Shown in pieces: positions 3,224 to 55,391 of a stretch of 64,000 nt of DNA. The stretch is from Candidatus Moranbacteria bacterium RIFOXYB1_FULL_43_19 (GTDB taxonomy: Bacteria; Patescibacteriota; Minisyncoccia; Moranbacterales; UBA11712), in NCBI GenBank assembly GCA_001784875.1, contig MFSH01000008.1, positions 1,555-65,554 of the forward strand, given 5' to 3'. Within the stretch, counting starts at the first letter, position 1. Every line of letters starts with the position of its first letter. The translations under genes and the position numbers were made by a program. Under the pieces are notes generated by a model that searched no databases, was not told the DNA's origin, and saw nothing but the letters and a program-made list of their open reading frames with translations.

Positions 3224-4081
3224 GTGAGATACAATAAGAATATGACTTCTTTACAGCGCTCGATAAAAAGAGCAATTATAATACTGGTTTATATAATAAT
3301 TTTCTCCGGAATCGGAACGGGCGCTTTTTTTCTTTTTCGCACGGAGCCGACTTGCGATGACGGCAAACTTAACCAGGGCGAAGAAAAAGCTGATTGCGGT
3401 GGCCCCTGCCAAAAATGCGAGGAAATTCCTAAAATAGAAAATGCCGAAATTTTGGAAAAAAGACTGGTCCCGTCAGGCGCAAACAGATATGATGCCTTGG
3501 TAAAAATCAAAAATCCAAATTCACTTTTTGGAATTGAAGATCTTGGGTATACTTTCAATTTCTTGGATGCCAGCGGAAAAGTTATTGGCCAAAAAGAGGG
3601 AGCGATCTTTCTTCTTCCGGTTGAAACGAAATACATTTTTGTTTTCAACATGGATCTTGCGGAAAAGCCGGATTCTGTCGACTTTCGTATAAAGTCGTAT
3701 AGGTGGCAAAAATTTTCGGATTATGAAGAGCCGAATATTGCTTCCTACCAGAAAGAATTCAGCTTCATCAGTGGCGGACCCGGGTTTGCTCAGTTGAAGC
3801 TGAAAATTCAAAACAAAAGCGGATATGACTTCAAAAAAATATCAACCAAAGCGGTTCTGCGAGACCGCCAGGGGAACCCGGTCGCTATAAACGAAACATA
3901 CAATAACGACGTACGTATAAATGAAGAAAGAGAGGTTATTTTCCAGTGGAGCGAGCCGTTTTCTCAGGATATTGATGTGCAAAATATCGAAGTTGATGAG
4001 GAGGCGAATGTTTTCAGCGACGATAATTTCATGAAGAAATATGGAACACCCGACCAATATGAAAGTTATGAATCGAATTAA
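3224..4081 (+). CDS. hypothetical membrane-anchored protein
   Basis: An N-terminal transmembrane segment (IIILVYIIIFSGIGTGAFFLF) is followed by a Cys-rich stretch and a soluble domain. No family was recognised. Confidence 0.4.
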   Translation: MRYNKNMTSLQRSIKRAIIILVYIIIFSGIGTGAFFLFRTEPTCDDGKLNQGEEKADCGGPCQKCEEIPKIENAEILEKRLVPSGANRYDALVKIKNPNSLFGIEDLGYTFNFLDASGKVIGQKEGAIFLLPVETKYIFVFNMDLAEKPDSVDFRIKSYRWQKFSDYEEPNIASYQKEFSFISGGPGFAQLKLKIQNKSGYDFKKISTKAVLRDRQGNPVAINETYNNDVRINEEREVIFQWSEPFSQDIDVQNIEVDEEANVFSDDNFMKKYGTPDQYESYESN

Positions 4082-4089: not shown

Positions 4090-5184
4090 ATGATTAGATC
4101 TTTATACAAATTTGATTGGGTTTTATTCTCAGCGCTTGTTCTCCTTCTGTTTCTTAGCCTGGCTGTGCTTTTTCCGATCAGCTATTCAGGAGAAAAAGAA
4201 ATTCCAGATGAAAGCCATTTTTTGAGACAGACAATTTTTGCGGTCATTGGGCTGACCGTTTTTTTTGTTTTTGCTTTTTTTGATTATCGGAGTCTTAAGA
4301 ATTATTCGACGGTTTTGTACGCTTTAGGTTTTTTGTTGCTGCTGCTCGTTCTTATATTCGGGAAGGTGGTTCGAGGGACGACCGGTTGGCTCGGGATCAG
4401 TGGGGTCCATCTTCAGCCGGTCGAACCATTCAAAATTGTTGCTGCGATACTGCTTGCAAAATATTTTTCACTTCATTCAAGGAGCATCGGAGACTACAAG
4501 CATATTCTTGTTTCTCTTGTTCCGGTGGCTGCATCAATTTTTTTGGTAATCAAGCAGCCTGATTTCGGATCGGCTTTTGTTATTTTTTTTCTCTGGATCT
4601 CGGTTCTCGTTATGAGTGGAATAAATAAAAAACATCTCTTTGTCCTCTTTTTGGTCATTTTGATCTTTGCTCTTTTAGGATGGAATTTTTTTCTCAAAGG
4701 ATATCAAAAAGAAAGAATAACAACACTTTTTAATCCCACTTCTGATCCGCTAGGCGCCGGATATAATGTTATCCAGTCCACAGTCGCGGTTGGGTCGGGA
4801 GGATTTTTGGGAAAAGGCCTTGGCCATGGTTCTCAAAGCCAACTCAATTTTTTGCCCGAAAAGCATACGGATTTCATATTCGCGGTTGTGGCTGAAGAAC
4901 TTGGCTTTGGCGGAGCGGCTTTTGTGATTGTCCTGCTTGCTGTTGTTATTTCGAGACTCATAAAAATTGCGCTGAGCAGCCGGGATAATTTTGGAAAACT
5001 TCTTGTCGGCGGAACAGCCAGTGTGATTTTTGTTCACTCGTTTATCAACATCGGAATGAATATCGGAGTTATGCCGGTGACAGGCATACCCCTTCCTTTT
5101 TTGAGTTATGGTGGAAGTTCTCTCATTACCCTGATGGCCGCTGCTGGTATGGCGGAAAGCGTCTGCCGGATAAATCGAAACTGA
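4090..5184 (+). CDS. SEDS-family peptidoglycan glycosyltransferase (FtsW/RodA)
   Basis: A polytopic membrane protein with the conserved PEKHTDFIFAVVAEELGFGGA block. Confidence 0.85.
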   Translation: MIRSLYKFDWVLFSALVLLLFLSLAVLFPISYSGEKEIPDESHFLRQTIFAVIGLTVFFVFAFFDYRSLKNYSTVLYALGFLLLLLVLIFGKVVRGTTGWLGISGVHLQPVEPFKIVAAILLAKYFSLHSRSIGDYKHILVSLVPVAASIFLVIKQPDFGSAFVIFFLWISVLVMSGINKKHLFVLFLVILIFALLGWNFFLKGYQKERITTLFNPTSDPLGAGYNVIQSTVAVGSGGFLGKGLGHGSQSQLNFLPEKHTDFIFAVVAEELGFGGAAFVIVLLAVVISRLIKIALSSRDNFGKLLVGGTASVIFVHSFINIGMNIGVMPVTGIPLPFLSYGGSSLITLMAAAGMAESVCRINRN

Positions 5185-6090: not shown

Positions 6091-6106
6091 TTTCTGAAAT
6101 ATGCAT

Positions 6107-6136
6107 CCGCCCCGAGTCCATCGGGGCGGTTTTTTT
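6107..6136 (+). terminator. intrinsic terminator after rplY
   Basis: The hairpin CCGCCCCGA-gtcca-TCGGGGCGG is followed by TTTTTTT. Confidence 0.6.
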
Positions 6137-6315
6137 AGAGCCCCGCACCATGCCTTTTGCGTTTTGCTTCACATGCTTTTAAAATTATATCCTGCTGGAA
6201 GCGAAAATCGCCGTGGCGTATTCTGCGGTACGGGGTAAATTATGATATAATCTAGGAAAACAAGGAAGCGCGTTCGCAAGAATGCTTCATCCAAAATGAT
6301 TTGCCAAGAACCAAA

Positions 6316-9435: not shown

Positions 9436-9594
9436 AAAAACCCCCGCTCCAATTTTGCTGGTGAAAATATTCCAAATATTTCTTTTCATGCTCGATGAAT
9501 ATTGTTGTCGCGCGTCGCTGGATGAAAGAGGGTCGAGTTACTCGCTCGACGCGCCGCGCGTGATGTTCAGCGGCAAAATTGGAGCGGGGCAAGC
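9436..9594. repeat. family F hairpin element with a roughly 20 bp terminal stem (CCCCCGCTCCAATTTTGCTGG ... CAGCGGCAAAATTGGAGCGGGG-CAAGC)
   Basis: Long inverted arms enclose internal GC-rich hairpins. A homologous copy lies at 50086-50196 with a shared internal CTCGATGA(A)TATT. Confidence 0.5.
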
Positions 9595-9797
9595 AAAAAG
9601 GTAAGTGTCCTTACTTTTCGCCAATTGGCGTGAATGACAATATGCCCGTCTTCGCGAGGTCTTCGCAAAGGCGGGTTTTTGTTATATGCGATGCTAATCT
9701 ACAAATAAATGCAAATCAGCGAATTGCGAATATTTTTTTCAGATTTGATTATCTTTGAATTTTGAAATATAATAACAATGCTAAAAAACTTGGAGTT

Positions 9798-11054
9798 ATG
9801 TCATATTTTGAAATAATCGGGGGAAGAAAATTGAATGGAGAGATCGAAGTGAAAGGCGCCAAGAACGCGGCCTTGAAAGCCGTAGCGTCGGCTCTTTTGT
9901 CGCGTGAAAAATGGACAATTACCAATCTCCCGCAAATCGAGGATATAAGCCGGATTTTGGAAATGGTGGAAGATTTGGGCGCGGAAGCAAAAAGAAGCAA
10001 AAATAAAGTTGAAATTCAAGCCAAAAACATCAAAAAAAGCCGTTTAAGCGAGAGACTGGCCGGAAAACTACGGGCTTCGATAATCCTGGCCGGACCGGTT
10101 CTGGCGCGAACGGGAAAAGTTTCCATGCCTTATCCGGGAGGGTGCGTGATCGGCAAGCGCCCCATTGATTTGTTCCTCGCCGGATTCCAGAAAATGGGAG
10201 CCAAAGTGAAATGGCAGGATGACCATTTCAGTTTGTCCGCCAAAAAACTAAAAGGCGCGAAAATATTTTTTCCAAAAATAACCGTGACGGGAACAGAAGC
10301 CATGATGATCACGGCGGTTGTAGCGGAAGGAGAGACGATTCTTGAGAACGCTGCCATGGAACCGGAAATTCCGGCTCTGGCGGAATTTCTCAATCGCTCT
10401 GGCTCAAAAATATCAGGCGCCGGAACGCCGACCATCAGAATAAAAGGGGTGAAAAAAATCGGAGGCGGCCGGATGAAAATTATTCCGGACCGGATCGAAA
10501 CAGGGACATTTGTCATACTCGCGGCGCTTTGCGGAGGAAAAATAAAAATCAAGAACTGCAATCCGGACCATATCAGAGCATTCCTTGCGAATATTCAAAA
10601 AGCGGGTGTCCGGATCGAGGAAGAAAATAACGAGCTTGTCGTTTGGGGAGCGGAAAAAATAAATCCGGTCAACGTGTCAACCCACGAATATCCAGGATTT
10701 GCGACTGATCTTCAGCCGCCTTTCACGCTGCTCATGACGCGGGCCAGGGGGACAAGCCAAATTCACGATCCTATTTTTGAAGGGAGACTGCTTTTCACGG
10801 ATATTTTGAATTCGATGGGAGCGAATATTGTTCTCAATGATCCGCATCGGGCGACGGTTCAAGGGCCGACGAAACTGCGAGGGAGAAAAATTGCGAGCCC
10901 TGATCTTCGGGCGGGGATTACACTTCTTCTTTCCGGACTCATCGCGAAAGGGAAAACGACCGTTGAGAATATTTATCAGATTGACAGGGGATATGAAAGG
11001 ATTGAGGAGAGGCTGCAAAAGTTGGGAGCAGATATCAAGCGAATCGAGAAATAA
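9798..11054 (+). CDS. murA: UDP-N-acetylglucosamine 1-carboxyvinyltransferase
   Basis: The N-terminus reads MSYFEIIGGRKLNGEIEVKGAKNAALK. An active-site Cys lies in the PYPGGCVIGKRPID region (characteristic MurA/EPT fold). The ATG at 9798 is preferred over the upstream TTG. Confidence 0.9.
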   Translation: MSYFEIIGGRKLNGEIEVKGAKNAALKAVASALLSREKWTITNLPQIEDISRILEMVEDLGAEAKRSKNKVEIQAKNIKKSRLSERLAGKLRASIILAGPVLARTGKVSMPYPGGCVIGKRPIDLFLAGFQKMGAKVKWQDDHFSLSAKKLKGAKIFFPKITVTGTEAMMITAVVAEGETILENAAMEPEIPALAEFLNRSGSKISGAGTPTIRIKGVKKIGGGRMKIIPDRIETGTFVILAALCGGKIKIKNCNPDHIRAFLANIQKAGVRIEEENNELVVWGAEKINPVNVSTHEYPGFATDLQPPFTLLMTRARGTSQIHDPIFEGRLLFTDILNSMGANIVLNDPHRATVQGPTKLRGRKIASPDLRAGITLLLSGLIAKGKTTVENIYQIDRGYERIEERLQKLGADIKRIEK

Positions 11055-13603: not shown

Positions 13604-13882
13604 CTACAACATAACCTCAATAATTTCTGTTTCAGGGGGCAGGAATTGAAGCTTACCCGTAGCCAAATCCAGTACTGCGATATTATTGTCCATCAGCTCC
13701 CTGGTTCTTTCTTCGCCCAAGTATAGAGCGAATTCATCGATCCGTTGACAGATCCTAAGTTTATTGCCATCTGGGTGGAATTGGCGAGCGTTAGATAAAA
13801 TTTGATGAACTTCACTCGCGACAATGAACCTGGATTTAGCTGGACAAAATCGGAGTTTTGCAAGGTGCTCTCCTTTTTTCAT
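13604..13882 (-). CDS. hypothetical small protein (92 aa)
   Basis: GGAGG lies 4 nt upstream of the ATG on the minus strand. No family was recognised. Confidence 0.3.
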   Translation of the reverse strand: MKKGEHLAKLRFCPAKSRFIVASEVHQILSNARQFHPDGNKLRICQRIDEFALYLGEERTRELMDNNIAVLDLATGKLQFLPPETEIIEVML

Positions 13883-13914
13883 GGCTCCTCCTAGAGTTCT
13901 ATTATTTTAATCAA

Positions 13915-15093
13915 ATGATTTCGAATCACTCTATCACAACTAATAAACTTCGTCAAGGATTCAAAGTGGCTCTTGTCCACGATTTTCTGAACCAACACGG
14001 CGGGGCGGAGAGGGTGCTTTTGGCGTTGCACGAGATATTTACCGAAGCGCCGATTTATACTTTGCTTTATGACCCTCAAAAAATGCGGGGGAAATTCAAG
14101 GACGCCGACGTTCGGCCGTCGTTCCTTCAAAAATTTCCGAAGTTTTTGAAAAAGCGACATAAGTGGCTTTTGCCTCTTATGCCGACTGCGCCGGAGACTT
14201 TCAACCTTCGGGATTTTGATCTGGTGATTTCTTCTTCGAGCGCTTTCGCCAAGGGAATAATAGTCAAACCAAAAACAATTCACATCTGCTACTGCCACAG
14301 CCCCATGAGATACGCCTGGGATTGGAACGAAAAATATCTCGACGAGCAGGGGCTGGGCACGAAAAGACGGATCCTGGCGCGGCTTCTTCTCAATTATGTC
14401 CGGATGTGGGACAAAGTGGCGGCGGACCGGGTGGATTTTTTCATCGCCAATTCAAAATATACCAGGGAGAGAATAAAAAAATACTATGGCTGCGAAAGTG
14501 CGGTCGTTTATCCGCCAGTGGATATTTCTTCCAAGACTAAATCTGGGAGCGATTTCCAAGACTTAGTCTTGGAAAAACGGGGTTACTTTTTGATTGTTTC
14601 CCGGCTATCGCCATACAAGAAAGTTGAAATCGCCGTGGAAGCCATGAACAAATTGAATCTTCCGCTCTTGGTAATTGGAGAAGGTTCTCCGAAATACGTG
14701 AAATACCTGAAATCAATCGCGGGGCCGAAAACGAAATTTCTGGGATTCCTACCGGATGAAATGATAAAAAAATATTTTTTCGGATGCCGAGCCTTCATTT
14801 TTCCGGGAGAAGATGATTTTGGAATCGCACCGGTTGAAGCCATGTCTTTTGGAAAGCCGGTGATTGCTTTCCGGCGGGGAGGAGCCATGGAAACGGTTGT
14901 CGAAGGAGAAACGGGAGAATTTTTTAACGAGCCAACAATTGAAGTTCTGGCCGACGCGGTGCGCCGGTTCCAGGAAAATGAAAAAAATTATGACCCGGAA
15001 AAAATCCAGCATCAGGCGCAAAAGTTTTCAAAAGAAAAATTTCGGGAGCATTTTTTGGAGGAAATTGAAAAAATAATACAAATACGCGATTGA
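13915..15093 (+). CDS. GT4-family glycosyltransferase
   Basis: The N-terminus has KVALVHDFLNQHGGAERVL and the C-terminus has the EX7E motif (FPGEDDFGIAPVEAMSFGKPVIA). It carries an in-frame CCAAGACTTAGTCTTGG repeat at 14531-14572. The ATG at 13915 is preferred over the TTG at 13858. Confidence 0.8.
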   Translation: MISNHSITTNKLRQGFKVALVHDFLNQHGGAERVLLALHEIFTEAPIYTLLYDPQKMRGKFKDADVRPSFLQKFPKFLKKRHKWLLPLMPTAPETFNLRDFDLVISSSSAFAKGIIVKPKTIHICYCHSPMRYAWDWNEKYLDEQGLGTKRRILARLLLNYVRMWDKVAADRVDFFIANSKYTRERIKKYYGCESAVVYPPVDISSKTKSGSDFQDLVLEKRGYFLIVSRLSPYKKVEIAVEAMNKLNLPLLVIGEGSPKYVKYLKSIAGPKTKFLGFLPDEMIKKYFFGCRAFIFPGEDDFGIAPVEAMSFGKPVIAFRRGGAMETVVEGETGEFFNEPTIEVLADAVRRFQENEKNYDPEKIQHQAQKFSKEKFREHFLEEIEKIIQIRD

Positions 15094-24261: not shown

Positions 24262-24408
24262 ATGGAATTTATCTATTTGCTGGAACATATAGATTAATTT
24301 ATATCTTGCCTGTTTAATCGGAAGTGGGTTGACAGAATTTCTCTTTTTTATATAATTCATACTGTTCAATATAATAAGTTTCCAGTGCTCGCGAACGAGT
24401 GCTTTTAA

Positions 24409-24527
24409 ATTCACCCCGCACCAATCCTAACAACGCGCGTCAATTATTCACGACAGAGAGGCGAAGCCGCTTCACTCTCTAGCTCAGTCTAACTATGGAC
24501 CTTGGCTGGGATTGGTGCGGGGTGAAC
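24409..24527. repeat. family F-like hairpin element directly upstream of greA
   Basis: The arms TTCACCCCGCACCAATCC ... GGATTGGTGCGGGGTGAA are near-perfect and enclose about 80 nt. Confidence 0.45.
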
Positions 24528-33656: not shown

Positions 33657-35495
33657 TTAATTTACGTTTATAACATAATAATCCGTCCCATTTCCGGGCT
33701 GGGGATCGAGCTTTTGGACATAGGCTCCCGGGAAAATTGATTTTGTTTTGGCGATGATTTCGCCGTCATAATACATAAGAACTATCTTGGCCGGCGCCTT
33801 GACGGTTTTCGGGTCGAAGTCGACGGGACGGAAATAGGCAATTTCCGGAGTCGGATAATGCGTTAGAACTTTTATCGCTTCGGCCGAGACAGGCAGGCCA
33901 TCGTCCATGATCTGGCCCCCGGCATTGGCAATGACGTATTTATTCACGTTGGGCGGAAGATTATTGAGATAAAGGGCCATATTTTTGAAATTTTGGGAAA
34001 AAGCGGCGTGAATGTCAGGGGCGCTGGCCCAGTCGATGAAATATGTTTTGATGGCGGCAAATCCAGACCAGGCAATGAGAATGATCAGCGCGGCGCGGCC
34101 GAGCTGGGCGGCAGGAAGCCGGAAATTTCTGGTTTTCATATGGTCGAGAAACCGGAAAATCATTTCCACGGCAAAAGCGGCAATGAGAATAGCAGCCGGG
34201 AGGGCTCCAATGGTCCGAAGAGCGTGGGGAAGGCCTTCGTAGGTGAGAAGTCCCGGCAGAAGCATGGCCACAAGCCAGGAAAGGAGAAGGACAGAGACCA
34301 CAAATTCCTGGCTTCTTTTCCTAAACCTGATTCTCTGATAAAGCCAATAGAAGAAATGGTAAATCAAAATGATTATCCCAATCAGGAAAAATATTCCCGT
34401 CCATGACTGAAGCTCTGGCTGGGAGGGAAAATTATGCCGCCAGTTCTGGTCACCTTTCACATTGAACATTCCAAAAGTCTTGCTGGTACTTTCCCAAAGA
34501 GCCGGCAGAAGATGGCCCTGGTTAACTTTTGGCGAAAGGACAGAAACAGATTCGGATCGGGTTTCAAAATATTCGGGATGCAGCCAAAAAGTGAGAAGCA
34601 TCGGAAGGGCGACAAAAAAAGCAGCTGAAAAGAAAGCCAGAATCGGCCTCCAGTGTTCGCGGAGGAACTTTTTCTTTGAAATGAGGAAAGCGATGAAAAG
34701 GGCAACGAGAATCGCCGGGGCGATCCGGAAGGCGATGTAACCGTGGATTCCAAGGCCGAAAAACACGCCGGCCAAAATATAATCATAGACCCCGCACCAA
34801 TTTTTTATATTAAAAAAAGATCCTAATTTTTCTCCCAAACTTTTTTGTCTTCGGGAAATTGATGCGGGGCAAGCTTTTTTCTCGCGCAGGCCCTTGAAAA
34901 GAAAATAAAAGGCAAAAACAAGGACGAACGGCAGCATGTTGGCGCGAAAAGAAATGCGGTTGAAATTGATGGCCCAAAAAGAAGTGGCGTATAGAAAACC
35001 GGCGACCAGTCCGGTCCGGTAGGTGCCGAAAAGCTCGCGGGCAAGAAGCATCATCCCGGCCACTGTCAATGCGCCGAAAAAGACCGACCACATTTTGAGA
35101 GTAATGATGCTGACGCCGAAGAATTTGAATCCCAAAGCAATGAGATTCATGAAAAGTCCCTCACGCCCATAGTTATTGGGATAGAACCACTGAAATTGGC
35201 CGGTTTCGAGAGCGTTGATGGCGTCGGTCCCATTGACAGCCTCATCCGGATAAACTCCGGGAGGCAACGTCGTGATATGATATGTCCTTGCCAGAATAGC
35301 AATCGCAAAAATCGAAGCCGCGACTGTCAAATAGAAAAATCGATGTTGGAGAAAAGAGTTATCTTTCCAAACAGCAGCTATTCTGTCCTTGAGGGCAGGT
35401 TTTTTTTGCTTTTTTGTTTTACTTTTCATTTCTGTTTTAGAAGTTATTCCGATGATCATATTATACATCAAAACCCCGAGGCTTGACAATATCAT
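33657..35495 (-). CDS. GT-C glycosyltransferase, ArnT/GT83-like
   Basis: A polytopic membrane protein with a DE motif (YPDEAVNGTDAINALETG). Confidence 0.7.
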   Translation of the reverse strand: MILSSLGVLMYNMIIGITSKTEMKSKTKKQKKPALKDRIAAVWKDNSFLQHRFFYLTVAASIFAIAILARTYHITTLPPGVYPDEAVNGTDAINALETGQFQWFYPNNYGREGLFMNLIALGFKFFGVSIITLKMWSVFFGALTVAGMMLLARELFGTYRTGLVAGFLYATSFWAINFNRISFRANMLPFVLVFAFYFLFKGLREKKACPASISRRQKSLGEKLGSFFNIKNWCGVYDYILAGVFFGLGIHGYIAFRIAPAILVALFIAFLISKKKFLREHWRPILAFFSAAFFVALPMLLTFWLHPEYFETRSESVSVLSPKVNQGHLLPALWESTSKTFGMFNVKGDQNWRHNFPSQPELQSWTGIFFLIGIIILIYHFFYWLYQRIRFRKRSQEFVVSVLLLSWLVAMLLPGLLTYEGLPHALRTIGALPAAILIAAFAVEMIFRFLDHMKTRNFRLPAAQLGRAALIILIAWSGFAAIKTYFIDWASAPDIHAAFSQNFKNMALYLNNLPPNVNKYVIANAGGQIMDDGLPVSAEAIKVLTHYPTPEIAYFRPVDFDPKTVKAPAKIVLMYYDGEIIAKTKSIFPGAYVQKLDPQPGNGTDYYVINVN

Positions 35496-35577: not shown

Positions 35578-36435
35578 ATGGTAAAAAAATTGTGGATTTT
35601 TCGGATTTTTTTCTTTTTTTCTTTGATATTTAGCACGAATGCCTTTGCCGCTGACCGGCAGGGCGTGTGGGAAGCTCTGCACTTTGATCGTCTGTATCAG
35701 GAGTATGTGCTTTGGCACCAATGGGCTGACAGCGGAAAAGTCAAGTTTGAGATCTCAAAGTATTCACTCATCGGTGACCAAGAAAAAGAAGAAGTTTTCT
35801 GTTCCGGAGAAATTGAAGCCAACTCCATTCTTATCGCCAAAGATTTTTTCAATGGCGATGATGGCATCGTTTTTGCCCGGAGAGAGGGGAGTTCTGGAAA
35901 TTTGAGTTATTCTTTCTTCTGTTTCTATCCATATGCCAGAAAACTGGAAAAAGTTTTCCCGGAACGGTTTCTGGAATGCGGCTCCCTCACGGTCGAAGGT
36001 GGACGCCTGATCGAATGGTCAAGCTTGAGGTCCACGGTCATAGAGCTCGAAGATGGAAAAGTTATTTTCAAAGATGAAATTGTGGGTAAAAATCTTCTTC
36101 TCTATGCCGGCGGATATGTCATTTCCTTCAATATGAGTGACGGAAAAATATCTGCTCGGCTGGGGGAAATTATCCGCCGCAAAAAAAAGGTAATCACAAT
36201 GGATCGAGGTGCCCTTGCCAACGGCTCGACCATAAATATACCAGTTGGCCAGGGCATAATACTGATCCGGACCGACAGGATCACGACCTGTGAAAAAATC
36301 AGGATTGAGGGAGAAGCGCTTAAGATAATCACGCCCAATGTTTCCATCGGCGACAAAAAAGGAGAGAGCCGAATTTCGATCGAGTATAATCATAGCCAGC
36401 CCCATTCTTTTGAACTGAAAGTCAGGGCGAATTGA
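35578..36435 (+). CDS. secreted hypothetical protein
   Basis: A signal peptide (FSLIFSTNAFA|AD) is present. No family was recognised. Confidence 0.45.
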   Translation: MVKKLWIFRIFFFFSLIFSTNAFAADRQGVWEALHFDRLYQEYVLWHQWADSGKVKFEISKYSLIGDQEKEEVFCSGEIEANSILIAKDFFNGDDGIVFARREGSSGNLSYSFFCFYPYARKLEKVFPERFLECGSLTVEGGRLIEWSSLRSTVIELEDGKVIFKDEIVGKNLLLYAGGYVISFNMSDGKISARLGEIIRRKKKVITMDRGALANGSTINIPVGQGIILIRTDRITTCEKIRIEGEALKIITPNVSIGDKKGESRISIEYNHSQPHSFELKVRAN

Positions 36436-36661
36436 ATGGGTGTCCAAATTTTTAAGCTTCCGGTGCCAAACTGCGTGGATTCCACGCGGGGCAGCGCCGG
36501 GGCTTTTTTTATAGAAAAAACCTTGCCCCGTACCAATTCTGCGCAATATACACCAAACATCGCAGGCAAATTAAAATTATCTTCTAACAAGCTGCTGATA
36601 CGGCAGAAAAATTGGTGCGGGGTTATCCACACCGCCGGATGTTGTTCTCTCCAGAAAGTTT

Positions 36662-39187
36662 TTGTGGTATAATTCTGGAAAAGAAAAGAAAATTTTTTCC
36701 ATGGTAAACAAAAAACCATCACAAACGGGCGGGAGAATTGAAGTTGGTACAATATCGCCAACTGGACCAGCTAGGCAAGTTGAAAATCCAGAAAAAAAAG
36801 AGCTCAAGTTGACCAAAGAAGAGGAAAGAAAAATCGCCCAAGACATCCAAATTCTTTCCGGAAAATACGATTTTGCCAAACTTTTGCGGCAAAAGGGTTT
36901 CGATGTGACAGATACAGACGGAGAAGAATTCAGAATATTTGTTTTGAACAATATGGGTGATCTTCAGGGCGCCCTGCTGTCATATTTGGAAGAAGAATAT
37001 GGGACGCAAAAATTGAAGCAAGAAATTCTTGGAAACGGAAACCTTGCAAGCGAATTTTTTGAAGCTGAAATGGAAAAACAGACGGGAGAATATTATTGCA
37101 AATTTTTGAACAGCCAGAATGAATTGAGTGAAAAACAAGGCCGGAATTTTGACCGGATGAACCTTGAGAAACACTCAGATGTTGTTTTGAAATCAGCGGC
37201 AGAAGTCCTGTCAGAAGCCGTGGACCAAAAAGAGCTGAAAGAAAAAATAGAAGCAGCTGTCGAGGAAAAAATTCAAAAAATTATGCAAGCCATGGACGGG
37301 CTGGATCAAGACGGGTTGCGAAAAAGTGGAGTGGATCCGGACGCTCTCGAAGCAGAAAAGAAATCTTTCTTAGAAAAGGAGAAACAGAAAATTATCGAAC
37401 ATTGTCTGGAAAGATTCCAAAAAGGTTCTGAAGCGGGACCACTGCCTCAAGATCCCGAACAAATTGTTTTTTGGACGAACTATTTCACGAACTCCGCTTT
37501 CAGCCATAAGGGTGACGAAAATCTCCGGAAGGCCTTCGGAAAAGCGTTTCCAAAAACTGTGGGCGGGACAGAAAAATCCGAAATGGACAACAGGGCGGAT
37601 CCCAATGCCACTCCCGAGAGGTTGATTGCCGAACACGGGCTATATAGCGCCAAAACGCCGAATTTGGATGAAATGCTGGGAAAAAGTCCTTCTAAAGAAG
37701 AAGCTTTGCAACGGCTCAAAGAAAATATGCGCAAGTTTTTGGATGATTTCACGACGCACGGGATGCTCGGTCCCCCCGATCCGGAAACAGGAGAGCGCCA
37801 AATTTTGCCGCGGTCTGATCTGGACGGACAGGCTTGCGTGCTGCTTCTCAAAAAAGCGGGCTTCAATTTGGACAAATTGAAATACGTGAAACAGGGCGAG
37901 GAGCCGGAATCGGGCTGGGCATTTGACATAACCAAGGAGCACGGCTATGTCCTGAAAGACGGAGGCCGGGTTCTCATCACCAACGATTCAAACAAAGAAT
38001 CCGGAAAAGACAGTTCGGCCAAGTTTATCTTCGAGGGGCTCAAAAATTTTGGCCTGCTTGACCAGATTGGAAAAGAGGAAATGAAGGCTCTTGAAAAATT
38101 TGTCGAATTTGTGACAAAAGAAGACAACAAAGACTACACCGACCACGAAGCGAAGCAAATCATTGACCATTATCCCAAAAATCTGGCGGGACTGCGCAGA
38201 TTCTTGACGGACGAGGACTTGCTTCGGGTTTTTGAAGAACAGGTAAAGGAAAAAAAATATTTCAACCCATATATGGCTTTGCCGGGCATATATCTGGAAA
38301 ATCTTTCCTATCGCGATCCGGCAACGGGCGAACCGATGAAATTCGAGCAGGTTTCGAAAAAACTCCATAATTCCAAAAAATATTCTTTGGAATCGATCAG
38401 CGATTCGGAGAGCAAGGGATTCTTCATTGACACGGGCGACGGGCGTTTTGGAAAAGTTTTGATTGACTCCGGAAGGCTCGACGCGCAGGGAGTCCGGAGA
38501 AGAAAAATCGGCTTGGGTTATGATGCAGCGAGAAGCGAGGGATTTGGAGCCTATGTGGTTTTTGACGAAGAAGGCAAATATTTTTCCGTCCAAACCGTGA
38601 AAGACATGGACTTTGAATTTGGTCAGGGAATGGAAGTTAGCAAGCGGTATTGGCTTTTCACAGGAGACAGGAAATTGGAGGTGAATCTGGAGGAAATACT
38701 CAAAAAATTGAGTGGCAATCCGGATTATCAGATGGAAGCCGGTCTCAAAGAAGCTCTGGAAAAAGAGAAAAAAGAAATTGAAGAAACAGAAAAAAGAGTG
38801 AATCTTCTCTTTGATGGGTTGAAAATCGGGGCGATTGAAGCAGGAATGCCCGAAGATATTTCCGCCCTTTCAGGCGAAGAAAAAAAGAAAGCCGAGGCGA
38901 AATTCAGGCTTCTGGAAGAAACAAAAACGCTTGCGCGGAAGATTGCGGGCGCTGTATCAGTGAAGGATGTCGAATATTTTTTGGCGAGCGTCTTGGGAGA
39001 GAAAAACTTTGAACAATATGCCAGTTTGAGGGACAAGGAAACAGATCCGGGAAAAAGAGAAAGATTTGGCAATGTAGTCAAAAAAGCATCGCGTGATTTT
39101 TTGGAAAAAAGAGGCTATAATAAGGATGAAGCAAAACAAGTTGTCAACTTATTTTTCAAAATAACGGATCTAAGGTTTACCAAATAA
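36662..39187 (+). CDS. large hypothetical protein (841 aa, highly charged, no TM)
   Basis: A clean ORF, first of a same-strand block that ends in a T4CP-like ATPase. Confidence 0.5.
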   Translation: MWYNSGKEKKIFSMVNKKPSQTGGRIEVGTISPTGPARQVENPEKKELKLTKEEERKIAQDIQILSGKYDFAKLLRQKGFDVTDTDGEEFRIFVLNNMGDLQGALLSYLEEEYGTQKLKQEILGNGNLASEFFEAEMEKQTGEYYCKFLNSQNELSEKQGRNFDRMNLEKHSDVVLKSAAEVLSEAVDQKELKEKIEAAVEEKIQKIMQAMDGLDQDGLRKSGVDPDALEAEKKSFLEKEKQKIIEHCLERFQKGSEAGPLPQDPEQIVFWTNYFTNSAFSHKGDENLRKAFGKAFPKTVGGTEKSEMDNRADPNATPERLIAEHGLYSAKTPNLDEMLGKSPSKEEALQRLKENMRKFLDDFTTHGMLGPPDPETGERQILPRSDLDGQACVLLLKKAGFNLDKLKYVKQGEEPESGWAFDITKEHGYVLKDGGRVLITNDSNKESGKDSSAKFIFEGLKNFGLLDQIGKEEMKALEKFVEFVTKEDNKDYTDHEAKQIIDHYPKNLAGLRRFLTDEDLLRVFEEQVKEKKYFNPYMALPGIYLENLSYRDPATGEPMKFEQVSKKLHNSKKYSLESISDSESKGFFIDTGDGRFGKVLIDSGRLDAQGVRRRKIGLGYDAARSEGFGAYVVFDEEGKYFSVQTVKDMDFEFGQGMEVSKRYWLFTGDRKLEVNLEEILKKLSGNPDYQMEAGLKEALEKEKKEIEETEKRVNLLFDGLKIGAIEAGMPEDISALSGEEKKKAEAKFRLLEETKTLARKIAGAVSVKDVEYFLASVLGEKNFEQYASLRDKETDPGKRERFGNVVKKASRDFLEKRGYNKDEAKQVVNLFFKITDLRFTK

Positions 39188-50041: not shown

Positions 50042-50085
50042 ATGCAATTTGAAATTGATTTATTAACTTAATAGTATTATATTAG

Positions 50086-50196
50086 TGAAACCCCCGCACC
50101 AAATTTTTGCTGGTTTGTATATATGCCAATTTGGGGTAAGTTTTTGTATTTGCGAAATCAGAAACTTATTCTCGATGATATTTGGTACGGGGCAAG
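50086..50196. repeat. family F hairpin element (CCCCCGCACCAAATTTTTGCTGG ... TTTGGTACGGGGCAAGC)
   Basis: A paralog of the element at 9436-9594. Confidence 0.45.
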
Positions 50197-50295
50197 CCTT
50201 AAATGGGGGATTTTTGTGTTAGGGATATGAATTTAGCGCGGAGAATCCTAAAGCTAAACTTTAGGAGCGCCTAAAGTTTAGCTTTAGGGGAAAAT

Positions 50296-50377
50296 ATGGA
50301 TAAAATAATCATTCGCGGAGCTCGCGAGCACCCCGAAGTATAACGCTTCGCGTTAACTACGGGGCAAGCAATTTGAT
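50296..50377 (+). promoter_or_regulatory. uvrA leader: a 15-codon uORF (MDKIIIRGAREHPEV) mimicking the UvrA N-terminus, overlapping a conserved hairpin element (50331-50370)
   Basis: The uORF ATG at 50296 has a GGGGA SD and its stop lies at 50341-50343. Its first 12 codons are synonymous or conservative variants of the uvrA start at 50378. The hairpin CCCCGAAGTATAACGCTTCGCGTTAACTACGGGGCAAGC has a paralog at 55392-55436. Confidence 0.35.
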
Positions 50378-53254
50378 ATGAATAAGATCATTATAAAAGG
50401 TGCTAGAGAACATAATCTCAAAAACATCGACCTTGAACTTCCGCGGGGGAAGTTTATCGTGTTCACGGGAATCAGCGGGTCGGGAAAAAGTACACTCGCA
50501 TTCGACACCATTTTTGCCGAAGGGCAAAGGCGGTATCTTGAAAGTTTGTCGAGTTATGCCCGGCAGTTTTTGGGACAAATGGAAAAACCGGATGTGGATT
50601 CAATCGAAGGTTTGAGCCCTGCGATTTCGATTGACCAGAAAGCCTCATCGCACAATCCGCGCTCGACAGTCGGGACAGTGACGGAAATCCAAGACTATCT
50701 GCGGCTTCTCTATGCCAAAATCGGACGGCCGCACTGCCCGGTATGTGGAAAAGAAATTTCGAAACTTTCAATTGATGAAATTGTGGATCGGATACTAACA
50801 TTCAATGCTCCGGGAACATTGAATGTTTTAGAAATTCTTTCACCGGTAGTCCGCGAGCGGAAAGGTGATTATGCCACGCTTCTTGCGGAGATGTGGAAAA
50901 GGGGATTCGCGGAGGCCTACGTGGATGGAAAAAAAGTGGTCCTCGAAGATGAAGCGAAAAAAGGAAAAATACTCGCCAGATACAAAAAACACAGCATTGA
51001 TATTTTGATTGATACGGTTGAAATCAGCGATAAAAATATTAGCCGGATATTTGAAAGTGTTGAGTCGGCGCTCAAGTTGTCTAAGGGATTGGTGAAAGTT
51101 ATTCCCGAAACGCATAACACGAAACACGACACGCGAGGGGAAGGGATTATTTTCAACCAAAATATGGCTTGTCCGGATCATGAGGACGTGGTTTTCCCAG
51201 AACTCGAGCCGAGGCTGTTCTCTTTCAATAGTCCGCAGGGGGCTTGTCCTGACTGCGAAGGATTGGGAACGAAAAAAGAAATTGATCCGAGCCTCATCAT
51301 TCCCGACAAAACCCGAACGATTGCCGAAGGGGCGATCATGCCCTGGAGCTACAAGCCGAACAACTACCAAGGCTCGATTTTGCGGGCGGTGACGAACTAT
51401 TATCATATTCCCGACAACGTCCGTTTCCGGGATTTGAGCGAAAAACAGCAAAATATTTTATTGTATGGGGATGAGGAACCAGAGGATATTGAAGTGCGGC
51501 TGAAGACAAAAACCGGAGCAGTTTGGCGCTTTGACGTCACCTGGAACGGAATTTTGGGCTTTATGCGCGACCGCTATTTCAAGACCGAATCGGAAGCGGT
51601 GCGGCAGGACATTGAAAAATATATGTCCCAAAGTCCGTGCAGCGCCTGCAAAGGTTCACGATACAAGCCGGAAGCGCTGTTAATAACAGTTGGAAGTCGT
51701 AATATTGCCCAAGTTTCAAAAATAAGCGTAAATGAAACGCTGAAATTTTTTGAGAGTTTGAAACTGAACGAGCGGGAAAAAATAATCGCGGGAAAAATCT
51801 TGAACGAAGTGAAAAGCCGCCTGAAATTTTTGGATGATGTCGGGTTGGGCTATTTGACCCTGGCCCGTTCAGCCAATACTCTGGCAGGCGGAGAAACACA
51901 GCGAATTCGTCTTGCTTCTCAAATCGGTTCGCAACTGGTCGGAGTCCTATACATTCTCGACGAACCGTCTGTTGGTCTTCATGCACGTGACAATGCGAAG
52001 CTTCTTGATACGCTGCTTAAGTTGAGAGACATTGGCAACACAGTGATTATTATCGAACATGACGAGGAAACTATCCGGAGTGCCGATCATCTGGTTGACA
52101 TCGGGCCGGGTGCGGGAAGGCTTGGCGGGGAGATTGTGGCTGAAGGAAAAATTAAAGATATCGAAACTGCTAAGAATTCTGTCACTGGCAAATACTTACG
52201 GGGAGAACTTGAAATTTCAATCCCAAAGGGTCGCCGGCCAGTGCGAAACAAAAAATGGCTGACCGTGAAAGGAGCGACAGAGCATAATCTCAAAAACGTG
52301 ACGGTTGAATTTCCTTTGAAAACTTTGACGTGCGTGACGGGCGTTTCGGGGTCGGGAAAATCAACACTCGTCGAAGACATTCTTGGAAAAGGACTTTCAG
52401 CAAAAATCATGCGTTCGCTGGAGCGGCCAGGCCGGCACAAGGAAATTCTCGGTACGCAGTATGTGGACAAAGTGATCCATATCAACCAGTCGCCGATCGG
52501 GAGGACGCCGCGATCGAACCCGGCGACATATGTGGGATTTTTCACACTGATTCGAGAACTTTTTGCGATGACAAAAGATGCGAAGCGGCATGGTTATGGT
52601 CCGGGAAGGTTTTCTTTCAACGTGAATGGGGGGCGTTGCGACAATTGCCGCGGGGAAGGATTTTTGAAAGTTGAAATGCAGTTTATGCCGGATGTATTTT
52701 TGCCGTGTGATGTCTGTCGCGGAAAAAGATACAACCGGGAAACGCTCGAAGTGAAATATAAAGGAAAAAATATCGCCGATATTCTCGCGATGACGGTTTC
52801 GGAAGGAAAAGTTTTTTTTGAAAATTATCCACGGATATATGCGCCGCTCAAAGTCCTCGAGGAGGTCGGGCTGGGATACATCAATCTTGGCCAGGCGGCG
52901 ACAACGCTCTCGGGCGGGGAAGCGCAGAGAATCAAACTGGCCTCGGAACTTTCGCGGCGGATGACCGGAAATACATTATACATTCTTGATGAGCCGACAA
53001 CAGGACTGCATTTCGACGACGTGAAAAAATTATTGAACGTTCTCCATCGCTTGGTGGAGGCGGGAAATACTGTTATTGTGGTTGAGCACAATATGGATGT
53101 TATCAAAACGGCCGATTGGATCATTGACCTTGGACCGGAAGGCGGGGACAATGGCGGACGCGTGGTGGTCACCGGCCCGCCGGAAGAAGTGGTGAAGTAT
53201 CATCAAGAAAGTTATACCGCAAAATTTCTTCGCGACGTAATTCGTAAATCGTAA
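50378..53254 (+). CDS. uvrA: excinuclease ABC subunit A
   Basis: Two ABC ATPase modules (GISGSGKSTL, GVSGSGKSTL), zinc fingers and LSGGE signatures are present. An in-frame ACACG repeat lies at 51107-51137. The last codons lie inside a family D repeat. Confidence 0.92.
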   Translation: MNKIIIKGAREHNLKNIDLELPRGKFIVFTGISGSGKSTLAFDTIFAEGQRRYLESLSSYARQFLGQMEKPDVDSIEGLSPAISIDQKASSHNPRSTVGTVTEIQDYLRLLYAKIGRPHCPVCGKEISKLSIDEIVDRILTFNAPGTLNVLEILSPVVRERKGDYATLLAEMWKRGFAEAYVDGKKVVLEDEAKKGKILARYKKHSIDILIDTVEISDKNISRIFESVESALKLSKGLVKVIPETHNTKHDTRGEGIIFNQNMACPDHEDVVFPELEPRLFSFNSPQGACPDCEGLGTKKEIDPSLIIPDKTRTIAEGAIMPWSYKPNNYQGSILRAVTNYYHIPDNVRFRDLSEKQQNILLYGDEEPEDIEVRLKTKTGAVWRFDVTWNGILGFMRDRYFKTESEAVRQDIEKYMSQSPCSACKGSRYKPEALLITVGSRNIAQVSKISVNETLKFFESLKLNEREKIIAGKILNEVKSRLKFLDDVGLGYLTLARSANTLAGGETQRIRLASQIGSQLVGVLYILDEPSVGLHARDNAKLLDTLLKLRDIGNTVIIIEHDEETIRSADHLVDIGPGAGRLGGEIVAEGKIKDIETAKNSVTGKYLRGELEISIPKGRRPVRNKKWLTVKGATEHNLKNVTVEFPLKTLTCVTGVSGSGKSTLVEDILGKGLSAKIMRSLERPGRHKEILGTQYVDKVIHINQSPIGRTPRSNPATYVGFFTLIRELFAMTKDAKRHGYGPGRFSFNVNGGRCDNCRGEGFLKVEMQFMPDVFLPCDVCRGKRYNRETLEVKYKGKNIADILAMTVSEGKVFFENYPRIYAPLKVLEEVGLGYINLGQAATTLSGGEAQRIKLASELSRRMTGNTLYILDEPTTGLHFDDVKKLLNVLHRLVEAGNTVIVVEHNMDVIKTADWIIDLGPEGGDNGGRVVVTGPPEEVVKYHQESYTAKFLRDVIRKS

Positions 53255-53401: not shown

Positions 53402-53644
53402 TTAAGATCTCGTGATAACACGGACTCGCTGGTCCATGGTGTTCTGCATGTCCGTACTGGTTCCCACAGAAATGATTTTTTCCGCGCAGGCCTGATTCTC
53501 AAGGTAATTCAAGAACTCAGACAAGACGAGATCATCCGTGGCGCCAGTGAAAGCTCGATCCAGTGCGCGCCTTCCATCTTGAGTAACCAGGGCTTCGTAC
53601 TCGCTGCCTTTGAATTTAATCCGTACCTCGTAAACCATTATCAT
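53402..53644 (-). CDS. hypothetical small protein (80 aa)
   Basis: A strong SD (AAGGAGG) precedes the ATG at 53644. Confidence 0.45.
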   Translation of the reverse strand: MIMVYEVRIKFKGSEYEALVTQDGRRALDRAFTGATDDLVLSEFLNYLENQACAEKIISVGTSTDMQNTMDQRVRVITRS

Positions 53645-53655
53645 GGCCGGCCTCC

Positions 53656-53976
53656 TTAGCTGATTGGCTCGATCGGGGTCACTGGCGTCGATTGGTGAAG
53701 TTCGTAATAATTGTCGCCAGGTCCTAAGATTGGGATGATATCCCGCCCCGGATTTTCCATCGGTCGCACGACGACAAATTTTACGCCGCCGTTATTTGGC
53801 CAGCCCAGTTCGAAGAGTCGCCAGGGTTCCATTTCGCCGAGAGGGATTAAGGGTAATTTTTTATACATCTCTCCCAGAGGAGGGGGAACGTCCAGACGCT
53901 TGCCTATAAGATACAAACCTGACAACACCAGTGCAACGAAGCACAAAGCGATTCCAATGATATCCACTTTTTCCAT
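53656..53976 (-). CDS. hypothetical small membrane-anchored protein
   Basis: An N-terminal TM segment (IIGIALCFVALVLSGLYLI) and an AAGGAGG SD just upstream of the start region. Confidence 0.45.
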   Translation of the reverse strand: MEKVDIIGIALCFVALVLSGLYLIGKRLDVPPPLGEMYKKLPLIPLGEMEPWRLFELGWPNNGGVKFVVVRPMENPGRDIIPILGPGDNYYELHQSTPVTPIEPIS

Positions 53977-54043: not shown

Positions 54044-55342
54044 ATGTCAATGCAAACCATAAAATCTAAAATCTCCAATCTCCCCAAATCTCCCGGTGTA
54101 TACGAATTTCGCGATAAGCAAGGGAAAATTCTTTATATTGGGAAAGCAACGAGTCTTAAGAGCAGGGTGGGGAGCTATTTCGGAAATTTTTCCAAGACTA
54201 AGTCTTGGAAAACCACAAAACTTAGTCTTGAGAGAGGGCCACGGATTGTTGAAATGGTCTCGCGAGCTACAGAAGTAAAAATCCATGAAACCGATTCGGT
54301 TCTCGAAGCCTTGATTTTGGAATCGAATCTCATCAAAAAGTACCAGCCGAAATATAATGTGATGGCGAAAGATGACAAGAGTTTTGGCTATTTTGTGATC
54401 ACCAAAGAAAAATTTCCGCGAGTGGTGATTTTCTGGAAAACGGAGCTGGGGAAAGTGCCGGCAAAAAAAATATACGGGCCGTATCTATCAAAATATCAAA
54501 TGAATATTGCTCTGAAACTGATTCGCCGAATTTTTCCGTTTCATTCCAACAAGCAGCAAACCGAAAAAGGGTGCCTTGATTTCCAAATCGGCCGGTGTCC
54601 CGGACCGTACGTGGGAGCTATTACGAAAAAAGATTATCTCAAAAATATCCGCAATATCGAGATGATACTCCGAGGCGAAAAAAAGCGGCTCGTCAGCTCG
54701 CTTAAAAAAGAAATGAAAAATTGCGCGAAGAACCACGAATTCGAAAAGGCCGCCGAAGCCCGCAACCGAATTTTCGCGCTCGAACATATCAGGGATGTTG
54801 CATTGATAAACCAAGACTTAGTCTTGGAAAATTCCAAGACTAAGTCTTGGGGAAGGATCGAGGCCTATGATATTTCCAATATCGGCGGTGATTATGCGGT
54901 TGGTTCGATGGTCGTTTTCACGAACAGCAAAGCGGATAAAAACGAATATCGTAAATTCAAAATCAAAACAGTCATTGGTGTTGACGATGTTGGTATGATG
55001 AAAGAAGTTTTAGCTCGGCGTTTTAGGAATAATTGGCCGAAACCGGACCTGATTCTCCTCGACGGGGGGAAGGGCCATCTCAATATGGCCCAGAAAATAA
55101 TGGAGGAATTGAAACTCGAAATCCCGATCATTGCTGCTGCCAAAGGGCCGACACGAAAAAAAATCGATATCTACCAGTCAAAATACCTCTTGACATATCT
55201 TGGTCGAAATGAGGAAATAAGGGAGAGGTATAACAGTATATTGAGTGATGCGAAGCTAATCGAGAGAATTCGCAACGAAGCCCATCGCTTTGCGATCAGT
55301 TATCACAAGAAATTACGACAGAAAAATTGGAAAAGTAGATAA
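54044..55342 (+). CDS. uvrC: excinuclease ABC subunit C, short form lacking the C-terminal (HhH)2 domain
   Basis: The GIY-YIG module (GVYEF...ILYIGKA), a UVR domain (EFEKAAEARNRIFALEHI) and an RNase-H-like endonuclease domain are present. Two in-frame CCAAGACTAAGTCTTGG insertions lie at 54192-54232 and 54811-54851. Confidence 0.8.
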   Translation: MSMQTIKSKISNLPKSPGVYEFRDKQGKILYIGKATSLKSRVGSYFGNFSKTKSWKTTKLSLERGPRIVEMVSRATEVKIHETDSVLEALILESNLIKKYQPKYNVMAKDDKSFGYFVITKEKFPRVVIFWKTELGKVPAKKIYGPYLSKYQMNIALKLIRRIFPFHSNKQQTEKGCLDFQIGRCPGPYVGAITKKDYLKNIRNIEMILRGEKKRLVSSLKKEMKNCAKNHEFEKAAEARNRIFALEHIRDVALINQDLVLENSKTKSWGRIEAYDISNIGGDYAVGSMVVFTNSKADKNEYRKFKIKTVIGVDDVGMMKEVLARRFRNNWPKPDLILLDGGKGHLNMAQKIMEELKLEIPIIAAAKGPTRKKIDIYQSKYLLTYLGRNEEIRERYNSILSDAKLIERIRNEAHRFAISYHKKLRQKNWKSR

Positions 55343-55391
55343 GCATATCTAGTACAGTAATACAGTATACTATACCGAATGTCCTTGTCGT

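Follow-up and report, generated by a model that had tools for sequence, protein, structure and literature searches.

We analysed 64,000 nucleotides of contig MFSH01000008.1 from Candidatus Moranbacteria bacterium RIFOXYB1_FULL_43_19 (hereafter, the window), in which hairpin-forming repeats, here called family F, occupy several sites. Our analysis indicates that family F probably consists of small (~60–150 bp) palindromic DNA insertion elements that carry no transposase, resemble miniature inverted-repeat transposable elements (MITEs) and are akin to the palindromic elements of Rickettsia; it is not a dedicated RNA gene. This conclusion follows from empty orthologous sites, in-frame read-through of one copy within a protein gene, mixed orientation, target-site duplications, the unrelated RNA loops that are hit, and the lack of a conserved interior. 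Each element is built of two inverted 11-bp ends, CCCCG(C/T)(A/T)CCAA, that together make up a 22-bp palindrome, followed inwards by a copy-specific extension of the stem and a variable interior. Copies in Patescibacteria are usually flanked by TTCA on one side and by CA(A/G)GC on the other.

The genomes of Patescibacteria (Candidate Phyla Radiation) are tiny and densely packed, and odd insertions in their rRNAs and proteins have been noted before. Family F accounts for extra segments in intergenic leaders, a glycosyltransferase, possibly UvrA, RNase P RNA and tRNA genes, and offers annotators a simple signature, CCCCGCACCAA..TTGGTGCGGGG.

Insertion sites, distribution and target duplications

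We compared four sites with the orthologous places in relatives (loci L003–L007). A copy at 34790–34874 (copy 3, plus strand), which was missing from the original prediction for this DNA and brings the long copies in the window to five, lies inside an open reading frame (ORF) on the minus strand, 33657–35495, encoding a GT39 glycosyltransferase. The copy is antisense to this gene, whose reading frame continues through it, adding ACPASISRRQKSLGEKLGSFFNIKNWCGV and a net insert of 28 amino acids (ACPASISRRQKSLGEK...) to the protein. An insert is found at this exact position in 7 of 15 homologues and is absent in 8 (65–100% identity); its distribution is patchy and does not track overall similarity, the closest homologue (88%) being without it. 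At the protein level, the ends of the insert give (I)YPAP(I/V)...NWCG, the translation of the conserved arm, around interiors of 28–36 amino acids. In the DNA, the window and L004 copies are of equal length, co-oriented and ~70% identical, and L003 and L005 are cleanly empty. Two of the homologues, P0006 and P0018, have further in-frame inserts of ~40 amino acids (alignment columns 52–95 and 458–498), which may come from other palindromic elements.

The other three sites also differ between relatives. In the divergent promoter region upstream of the GT39 gene, L003 alone has a copy, the inserted DNA including the tail, and the window and L004 are empty. The site at 36520 (copy 4) is filled only in the window and is empty in L003 and L004. 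Upstream of uvrA (copy 5), L006 keeps just the left ~75 nt of a copy and L007 has none; L006 and L007 were the only close relatives recovered by a UvrA-based scan of metagenome contigs, the other 78 loci belonging to unrelated bacteria. Copies have been gained or lost, and have decayed, after the split of this lineage from its relatives. Two independent assemblies (NCBI GCA_001784975.1 and ENA ERZ27254805) contain the window sequence without any difference, and the family F copies are therefore not an assembly artefact. Homologues of the encoded proteins also point to Candidatus Moranbacteria.

The original prediction had offered two readings, a non-autonomous mobile element and a structured non-coding RNA family. 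The first is borne out by the empty and occupied orthologous sites, the in-frame read-through, the mixed orientation, the absence of an inner ORF and the 4-bp duplications found elsewhere (below). The second is unsupported: Rfam gave no match, the interiors are unrelated and the copies lie on both strands relative to transcription. The sole conserved structure is the terminal stem, which is equally explained by a DNA inverted repeat.

We then scanned one genome per GTDB species with the pattern CCCCGYWCCAA-N36-96-TTGGWRCGGGG and found at least 119 loci across many phyla, where the 11-base ends flank inserts of 59–116 bp. The matches listed, to which the counts and taxa below refer, held 121 copies. 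They came from Patescibacteria (Saccharibacteria and Kaiser-, Falkow-, Wolfe-, Moran-, Buchanan-, Doudna-, Giovannoni- and Portnoybacteria), from Planctomycetota (Pirellulales, Phycisphaerae and Sedimentisphaerales), and from Omnitrophota, Gemmatimonadota, Acidobacteriota, Zixibacteria and others. Stem positions 12, 13 and 14 are not covered by the search pattern. Their bases pair in 90, 85 and 75% of copies, compared with 44, 62 and 42% after shuffling of the partners, and several types of pair occur. At positions 6 and 7 the pattern allowed either arm to vary, and the two arms covary (C-G 79 and T-A 28; A-T 100 and T-A 21). Pairing beyond the search pattern, together with covariation, shows that the matches are not due to chance. 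The original prediction was to be abandoned if no additional copies or no covariation of the stems came to light; both were found, the copies at at least 119 further loci, and neither discriminates RNA from DNA. The Zixibacteria chromosome CP070839.1 (L105, 5980–7000) has several head-to-tail copies separated by the same 8-nt spacer, TACCCTTA; they are either tandemly arrayed elements or part of a coding region whose repeats derive from the element.

An exact 4-bp direct repeat surrounds 22 of the 121 copies (~0.5 expected), and all 22 repeats are YNNR. YNNR stands on both flanks of 64 copies (7.6 expected), while the 4-mers further out are at background. Repeats of this kind are what insertion into a 4-bp staggered cut leaves behind. 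A transposase encoded elsewhere would recognise the 11-bp ends and paste the element into staggered 4-bp YNNR targets; the 4-bp duplications favour an enzyme of the DDE type, and the copies with a tail leave room for a single-strand HUH mechanism. We infer the trans-acting transposase, its class and the recombination step discussed below. Copies would persist only where a long hairpin is harmless, that is, in intergenic DNA or a 5′ untranslated region (UTR), in loops of structured RNAs, or in frame in a tolerant protein loop. A set of 2.9 million viral contigs gave one doubtful match, and phages are therefore not the carrier.

By their interiors, the copies fall into four classes. In the first, as in the window, the interior is unconserved and often AT-rich; the second is a Pirellulales type of 80–83 nt. 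The third, found across distant Patescibacteria, is ~110 nt long and has a conserved centre, CGG(A/U)AUCGCCUUCGGCUUAC, always oriented the same way with respect to the CARGC tail (15 copies at 14 loci: L183, L187, L102, L162, L194, L089, L179, L200, L122, L155, L193, L094, L168 and L182). It has no Rfam match, and could represent either the element's ancestral body or a small RNA. The fourth class comprises complete tRNA genes (13 copies at 12 loci). Insertion into structured RNA is also seen in a Parcubacteria contig (JAGLXN010000044.1; L154, 100–960), where the RNase P RNA gene, on the minus strand, contains three to four family F copies: ~100-nt hairpins at P3, P5.1 and P9, plus one near the 3′ end. 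A long AT-rich insert is present in P12 too. This RNA matches class A RNase P in Rfam with E = 1.9e-14 and 52 bits, under the gathering score, a low value that is due to the inserts.

Copies in the window and neighbouring palindromes

The window contains five long copies (85–154 bp) and two short hairpins in 64 kb, and every copy named in the original prediction proved to be present when the sequence was read. Their common ends are CCCCGCWCCAA...TTGGWRCGGGG, usually with CAAGC next. The arm CCCCGCWCCAA occurs 16 times with at most one mismatch, against 2.3 expected, and none of 100 shuffles reached 16; the paired pattern CCCCGYWCCAA..TTGGWRCGGGG identifies three elements, against none expected from shuffles. 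Exact CGGGGCARGC occurs at five sites in the 64 kb, all at the 3′ end of a family F hairpin. In alignment, the long copies have in common ~11–18 terminal bases and the tail, and their interiors do not align. An internal CTCGATGA(A)TATT, which had been proposed as a shared feature of two of them, is a weak coincidence of 7–8 bases at differing internal positions. None of the copies has an ORF within it, and none of those in the window is bounded by a target-site duplication, the flanks being unequal (TTCA and CAAGC, or others). Orientation relative to nearby genes is mixed, with two copies sense and two antisense, one of the latter within an ORF.

Long copy 1 (9441–9594, plus strand) lies between a gene for a CAP/Ig-domain protein and a murA-like gene (9762–11054). 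Its arms, CCCCGCTCCAA (9442–9452) and TTGGAGCGGGG (9579–9589), are followed by the tail CAAGC (9590–9594), and its stem reaches ~19 bp. Copy 2 (24410–24526) has a perfect 18-bp stem, TTCACCCCGCACCAATCC / GGATTGGTGCGGGGTGAA, and TTCA/TGAA on both sides in place of the CAAGC tail; its strand is ambiguous. The interior of copy 2 has a weak likeness to the ~110-nt class with its GC(C)-UUC-G(G)C hairpin, and the minus strand fits better. This copy is situated between a sigma-70 promoter that matches the consensus at 12 of 12 positions (24329–24356) and the ATG of greA (24536), and is predicted to be in the greA 5′ UTR. Copy 4 (36521–36622), previously described as a degenerate pair at 36520–36625, turned out to be a normal minus-strand copy with the tail CAAGG on that strand; it lies between the terminator of gene 35578–36435 and the promoter region of gene 36662–39187. 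Copy 5 (50091–50197, plus strand) starts ~8 nt past a promoter-like site (50055–50083) upstream of uvrA. Given the positions of copies 2 and 5 after these promoters, some copies are certainly transcribed.

The two short hairpins, both on the plus strand, have the form CCCCGAAGTATAA..GC-TTC-GC..TTAACTACGGGG-CARGC, and their stems differ by compensatory changes. S1 (50331–50370, or to 50377 with AATTTGAT) reads CCCCGAAGTATAACGC-TTC-GCGTTAACTACGGGG, CAAGC and then AATTTGAT; S2 (55392/55393–55433, or to 55442 with AATGGATAT) reads CCCCGAAGTATAAATGC-TTC-GCATTTAACTACGGGG, CAGGC and then AATGGATAT. Both have the CGGGGCA(A/G)GC motif at the 3′ end, as had been noted for the elements starting at 50331 and 55392. 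By their common CCCCG..CGGGG-CARGC ends, S1 and S2 are classed as short relatives of family F. Short hairpins of this type, CCCCG..CGGGGCA(A/G)G and 32–34 nt long, occur in other Patescibacteria as well (L120, minus strand, ~6100–6200; L109, minus strand, ~4040–4071), and one is in the D loop of a relic tRNA-Pro, beside a long copy that encloses a working tRNA-Pro. The predicted folds are more stable than those of shuffled sequences for all seven elements (z = −6.3, −7.7, −2.5, −2.8 and −3.1 for long copies 1–5, and −4.1 for each of S1 and S2).

Several other identities were considered for parts of the element and rejected. Cores of hammerhead, twister and other ribozymes gave no match in CTCGATGA. 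A likeness of the arm to the 3′ end of initiator tRNA raised the reading of CCCCGCACCA as a tRNA-like structure or primer-binding site (a tRNA 3′ end with CCA); it was dropped because the arms are simply inverted copies of each other and the adjacent TTCA misfits a T-arm. For a dif-like site of XerC/D, only the hexamer GGTGCG is in common, in the wrong orientation. A search of Rfam 15, at gathering thresholds and at E ≤ 10, found no match at any window copy, and across the window and 18 related loci Rfam recognised only tRNAs, a TPP riboswitch and RNase P.

Other palindromes unrelated to family F are present nearby. These are CCTAAAGCTAAACTTTAGG/CCTAAAGTTTAGCTTTAGG upstream of uvrA (50247–50288), palindromes of the CCAAGACTTAGTCTTGGAA type inside the uvrC ORF (54811–54850) and inside ORF 13858–15093 (14526–14577), and a perfect 46-bp palindrome at 402–447. 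The genome seems to hold several palindromic families, some of them within ORFs. A ~45-nt motif, GATGCTAATCTAC(A/T)AATAAATGC(C)AATCA..AAT(T/C)GCGAAT(A/G)TTTTTT, follows copy 1 (9690–9740) and recurs in L006 (3215–3275), where it takes the place of the right-hand part (half) of the copy that precedes uvrA; it is another dispersed repeat. UvrA of L006 (3327–6449) is 82 amino acids longer than that of the window by virtue of four in-frame inserts. One of them (4750–4870) has decayed ends like those of family F (CCGGTCTCAATT../..AATTGGCGAGG), and another (4095–4205) contains a different palindrome, CAAGGTTCGAC...GTCGAACCTTG. Between uvrA and uvrC, the window has two small minus-strand ORFs (53402–53976; 80 and 106 amino acids, no Pfam match); the gap in L006 is ~150 nt, so ~650 bp are inserted in the window.

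Displaced and replaced genes

Both short hairpins adjoin the severed 5′ end of a gene that has a working version downstream. At 50296–50331 (plus strand), the sequence ATGGATAAAATAATCATTCGCGGAGCTCGCGAGCAC (MDKIIIRGAREH) is a displaced ancestral 5′ end of uvrA, which reads into S1 and stops there (..PEV*). A recoded, working 5′ end, ATGAATAAGATCATTATAAAAGGTGCTAGAGAACAT (MNKIIIKGAREH), follows AATTTGAT at 50378–50413 (plus strand). The displaced end is identical to the working uvrA start of L006 at 30 of 36 nt and is the same as that N-terminus at the protein level, whereas the displaced and working ends within the window are identical at only 23 of 36 nt. This divergence is about that between orthologues of different species, and the uvrA pair in the window is thus not a fresh local duplication. 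Sliding identity of uvrA to L006, used to check for a recombination tract, showed no step, 36 nt being too short for this purpose. Translational bypass of the S hairpin in uvrA was considered and is unnecessary, since a complete start follows.

At S2, a 12-nt relic of the 5′ end of tRNA-Arg, GTCCTTGTCGTC (55381–55392, plus strand), stands directly 5′ of the hairpin. Downstream is a nested tRNA-Arg (55443–55663, plus strand) that begins with a second, 22-nt 5′ relic, GTCCTTGTAGCTCAACTGGATA (55443–55464), and ends with a relic T-arm and acceptor 3′ strand (55625–55663, plus strand). Between these relics, a second hairpin pair, CCTGCCCG/CGGGCAGG (55465–55472 and 55617–55624), encloses the working tRNA-Arg(CCG) at 55535–55607. 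L006 has a plain tRNA-Arg at the orthologous place. This second hairpin family thus shows a gene-in-gene arrangement like that of family F.

Similar arrangements recur in other genomes. Among the 13 tRNA-enclosing copies in the matches listed, 11–12 lie within an older homologous tRNA gene that has the same orientation and is split at the anticodon, D or T loop. The tRNA-Val(TAC) gene of L198, for instance, is interrupted after position 35, and the old and new copies differ by compensatory changes in the stems. The asymmetric outer flanks have no fixed orientation with respect to the enclosed tRNA. In L168, a complete element comes after the first 44 nt of lepA and is followed by 33 nt and a recoded full lepA start; the same order of 5′ fragment, element and new copy is seen in L194 (tRNA-Asp) and L122 (tRNA-Cys). 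Where the junction was read closely (uvrA and tRNA-Arg in the window, lepA in L168 and tRNA-Asp in L194), the element's first base marks the end of the old fragment.

Survivorship can account for part of the replacement pattern: a tRNA carried as cargo is retained only where the resident gene was destroyed. The constant junction at the first base, the seamless downstream junctions and the divergence of old from new copies argue for more than survivorship. As a pattern, element ends mark the junctions at which a diverged gene copy has overwritten the resident gene, at the uvrA 5′ end and tRNA-Arg in the window and at lepA and many tRNAs elsewhere. As a guess, the end of the element would act as a defined DNA end, with adjacent or enclosed DNA moving along with it, and the far side would be resolved by homologous recombination with the resident gene. 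We tentatively propose, as a possibility that we hold to be well short of even, that the hairpin is the vehicle or the scar of an undescribed gene-overwriting process, in which essential genes are entered and a diverged working copy is installed inside or after the hairpin. Entry would be in tRNA loops or in the first dozen codons of uvrA or lepA, and the element would become fixed because its cargo is now the sole functional copy. If true, this would provide a route of horizontal allele replacement in Patescibacteria and an 'addictive' strategy of persistence. If the link to replacement is mechanistic, it would show how foreign alleles come to overwrite essential genes in unculturable organisms, and how an element of 100 bp can become indispensable to its host.

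Alternative explanations and comparison with known systems

Several observations sit uneasily with a MITE-like insertion element. The TTCA and CAAGC flanks of the window copies travel with the element, unlike those of plain cut-and-paste transposons. For five sites, namely four tRNA loops and one intergenic site (L198, 2100–2520; L130; L176; L118; L003, 2880–2960), we know or can deduce the sequence before insertion. In these, N-CA-N′ became N-TT-CA-[CCCC..GGGG-CARG]-N′, gaining two T's at its left and the tail at its right without a duplication. This change fits no standard transposition chemistry; target duplications of 2 bp (CA) and of 4 bp were both tried for the copies with a tail, and the junctions fit neither. 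No transposase was found between distant arm pairs or beside solo arms in ~1 Mb of loci, where the genes were ordinary ones (FlhA, RpoN, RecG, SecY, GspF and others), nor did these loci contain an autonomous insertion sequence with such ends. The 11-bp ends are identical across phyla and are unusually conserved for the ends of insertion sequences, with the proviso that the search pattern selected for identity. In the GT39 gene, conserved ends surround a diverging interior, which implies selection or homogenisation acting on the ends, so they may have some role at the host or RNA level. Copies 2 and 5 are in predicted 5′ UTRs.

The hairpins might instead act at the RNA level, as processing sites (for RNase III, for instance), stabilisers or 5′-UTR regulators; the conserved 11-bp stem would then be bound by a conserved RNA-binding protein, and transposition would be secondary or absent. 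Strong predicted stems and covariation at positions 6, 7 and 12–14 are consistent with this, as are the place of copy 2 between a consensus promoter and greA, that of copy 5 at the predicted transcript start of the uvrA leader, the copies that flank tRNAs or occupy RNase P RNA helices, and the conserved GT39 ends around a drifting interior. The ~110-nt class, with its conserved CGG-AUCGCCUUCGGCUUAC centre in fixed orientation to the tail, points the same way. We nevertheless consider such a role unlikely. The family has no Rfam counterpart and the interiors in the window are unrelated; copies run both with and against transcription (two sense, two antisense, one of the latter inside an ORF), and enclosed tRNAs occur in either orientation relative to the asymmetric flanks. 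As a test of strand, the asymmetry of G-U versus C-A mismatches is weak (28 versus 12) and is mostly at the frayed inner end of the stem. The 4-bp duplications and the empty orthologous sites are signatures of events in DNA.

Among DNA-level mechanisms, an enzyme of the single-strand HUH (Y1) kind, as in elements derived from IS200/IS605 or in repetitive extragenic palindromes (REPs) and their REP-associated tyrosine transposases (RAYTs), would take the place of a DDE enzyme, with TTCA as the target and CA(A/G)G as the 3′ terminal tetranucleotide. It would explain the lack of target duplication in the copies of Patescibacteria and of the window, the asymmetric tetranucleotides outside the hairpin (A at −1 of the left flank in 26 of 34 copies, TTCA as the commonest 4-mer, and the tail CA(A/G)G), the presence of six of the seven window copies on the same strand, and the right junctions in the loops of tRNA-Glu and tRNA-Val(CAC), which fit insertion 3′ of a native TTCA. 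However, 22 copies that have these same ends lie between exact 4-bp duplications of variable sequence, which suggests staggered cuts through both strands, and IS200/IS605 elements end in two unlike subterminal hairpins instead of a single terminal inverted repeat. The left flank is often something other than TTCA (in the window TAGA, ATAA and AAAC), the two extra T's of the left junctions are unaccounted for, and no Y1 transposase was seen in the loci examined. We regard this mechanism as about as improbable as a role in RNA. Less probable still is that the arms are sites for a site-specific recombinase, serving as invertible switches (invertons) or as cassette-insertion sites like the attC sites of integrons. 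The arms form a perfect 22-bp palindrome with 11-bp halves, the size of the core sites of tyrosine recombinases; these inverted repeats surround a variable 36–126 bp 'cargo', stand upstream of genes and in a surface glycosyltransferase gene, and enclose tRNAs in either orientation relative to the outer flanks. Yet no locus had both orientations of an interior, the GT39 copies of the window and L004 being co-oriented and ~70% identical. An inverted GT39 interior would bring in stop codons and so serve as an off switch only, and no such allele was present among the 15 homologues. Integration would leave a full site on each side instead of half-sites, and enzymes of this type do not make 4-bp target duplications.

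The MITE-like insertion element that we favour is best judged against known systems. Bacterial MITEs (the Correia elements of Neisseria, ERIC/IRU, RUP and Nezha), like family F, are short, multi-copy and free of ORFs, have terminal inverted repeats that give a hairpin transcript, lie mostly in intergenic DNA or 5′ UTRs, and vary in presence between relatives; short target duplications are seen in part of family F. Family F thus has the short length, the copy number, the lack of a transposase ORF, the shared terminal inverted repeats and the insertion polymorphism of a MITE, and the ~1 Mb of loci yielded no transposase-bearing insertion sequence with the same ends. In contrast to MITEs, family F copies within one genome share the terminal 11–18 bp and not the body, their 11-bp ends cross phyla, those in Patescibacteria have fixed asymmetric flanks with no duplication, no parent insertion sequence is known and some copies enclose complete tRNA genes.

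REPs and bacterial interspersed mosaic elements mobilised by RAYTs, and elements derived from IS200/IS605, are likewise extragenic hairpins with a conserved tetranucleotide by the stem and many copies without duplication. REPs, however, are species-specific imperfect palindromes of 20–40 nt, whereas in family F long terminal stems enclose a large, variable loop, and 4-bp duplications occur in some of its copies. Rickettsia palindromic elements, reportedly described by Ogata et al. in 2000, are said to be ~100–150 bp long, to lie in frame in protein genes and to be translated. As at the GT39 site, where a palindrome lies in an ORF with the frame kept and the insert missing in some orthologues, they are in-frame palindromic insertions present in some relatives and missing in others. 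Unlike family F, they are conserved over their whole length, and their phylum and sequence are unrelated. We know of no description of Rickettsia palindromic elements that enclose tRNAs or lie beside displaced gene ends.

The junctions at uvrA, lepA and the tRNAs, where an element end is joined to travelling host DNA, are reminiscent of one-ended transposition by ISEcp1 (IS1380 family) and IS91/ISCR and of insertion-duplication by a single crossover. IS1380-family elements have 'CC' ends and make duplications of 4–5 bp. ISEcp1 and IS91 are full insertion sequences with a transposase, whereas family F moves 14–75 nt or one tRNA, and its far junction, unlike that of one-ended transposition, is seamless, as homologous recombination would leave it. 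Mitochondrial hairpins (double-hairpin elements and GC clusters) and homing-endonuclease insertions (such as that in Allomyces atp6) invade genes, rRNA loops and spacers. Like family F, these inserts bring a replacement for the severed part of a gene, and the old part stays behind as a relic; they are organellar, usually replace the 3′ end and contain an endonuclease gene, whereas family F is bacterial, replaces 5′ ends or whole tRNAs and has no ORF. Full-text searches of the literature by sequence and topic returned no account of family F or of palindromic mobile elements in Patescibacteria, although an earlier description is possible. Its cross-phylum ends, its invasion of RNA genes and its link with overwritten genes make family F new among known MITE-like elements.

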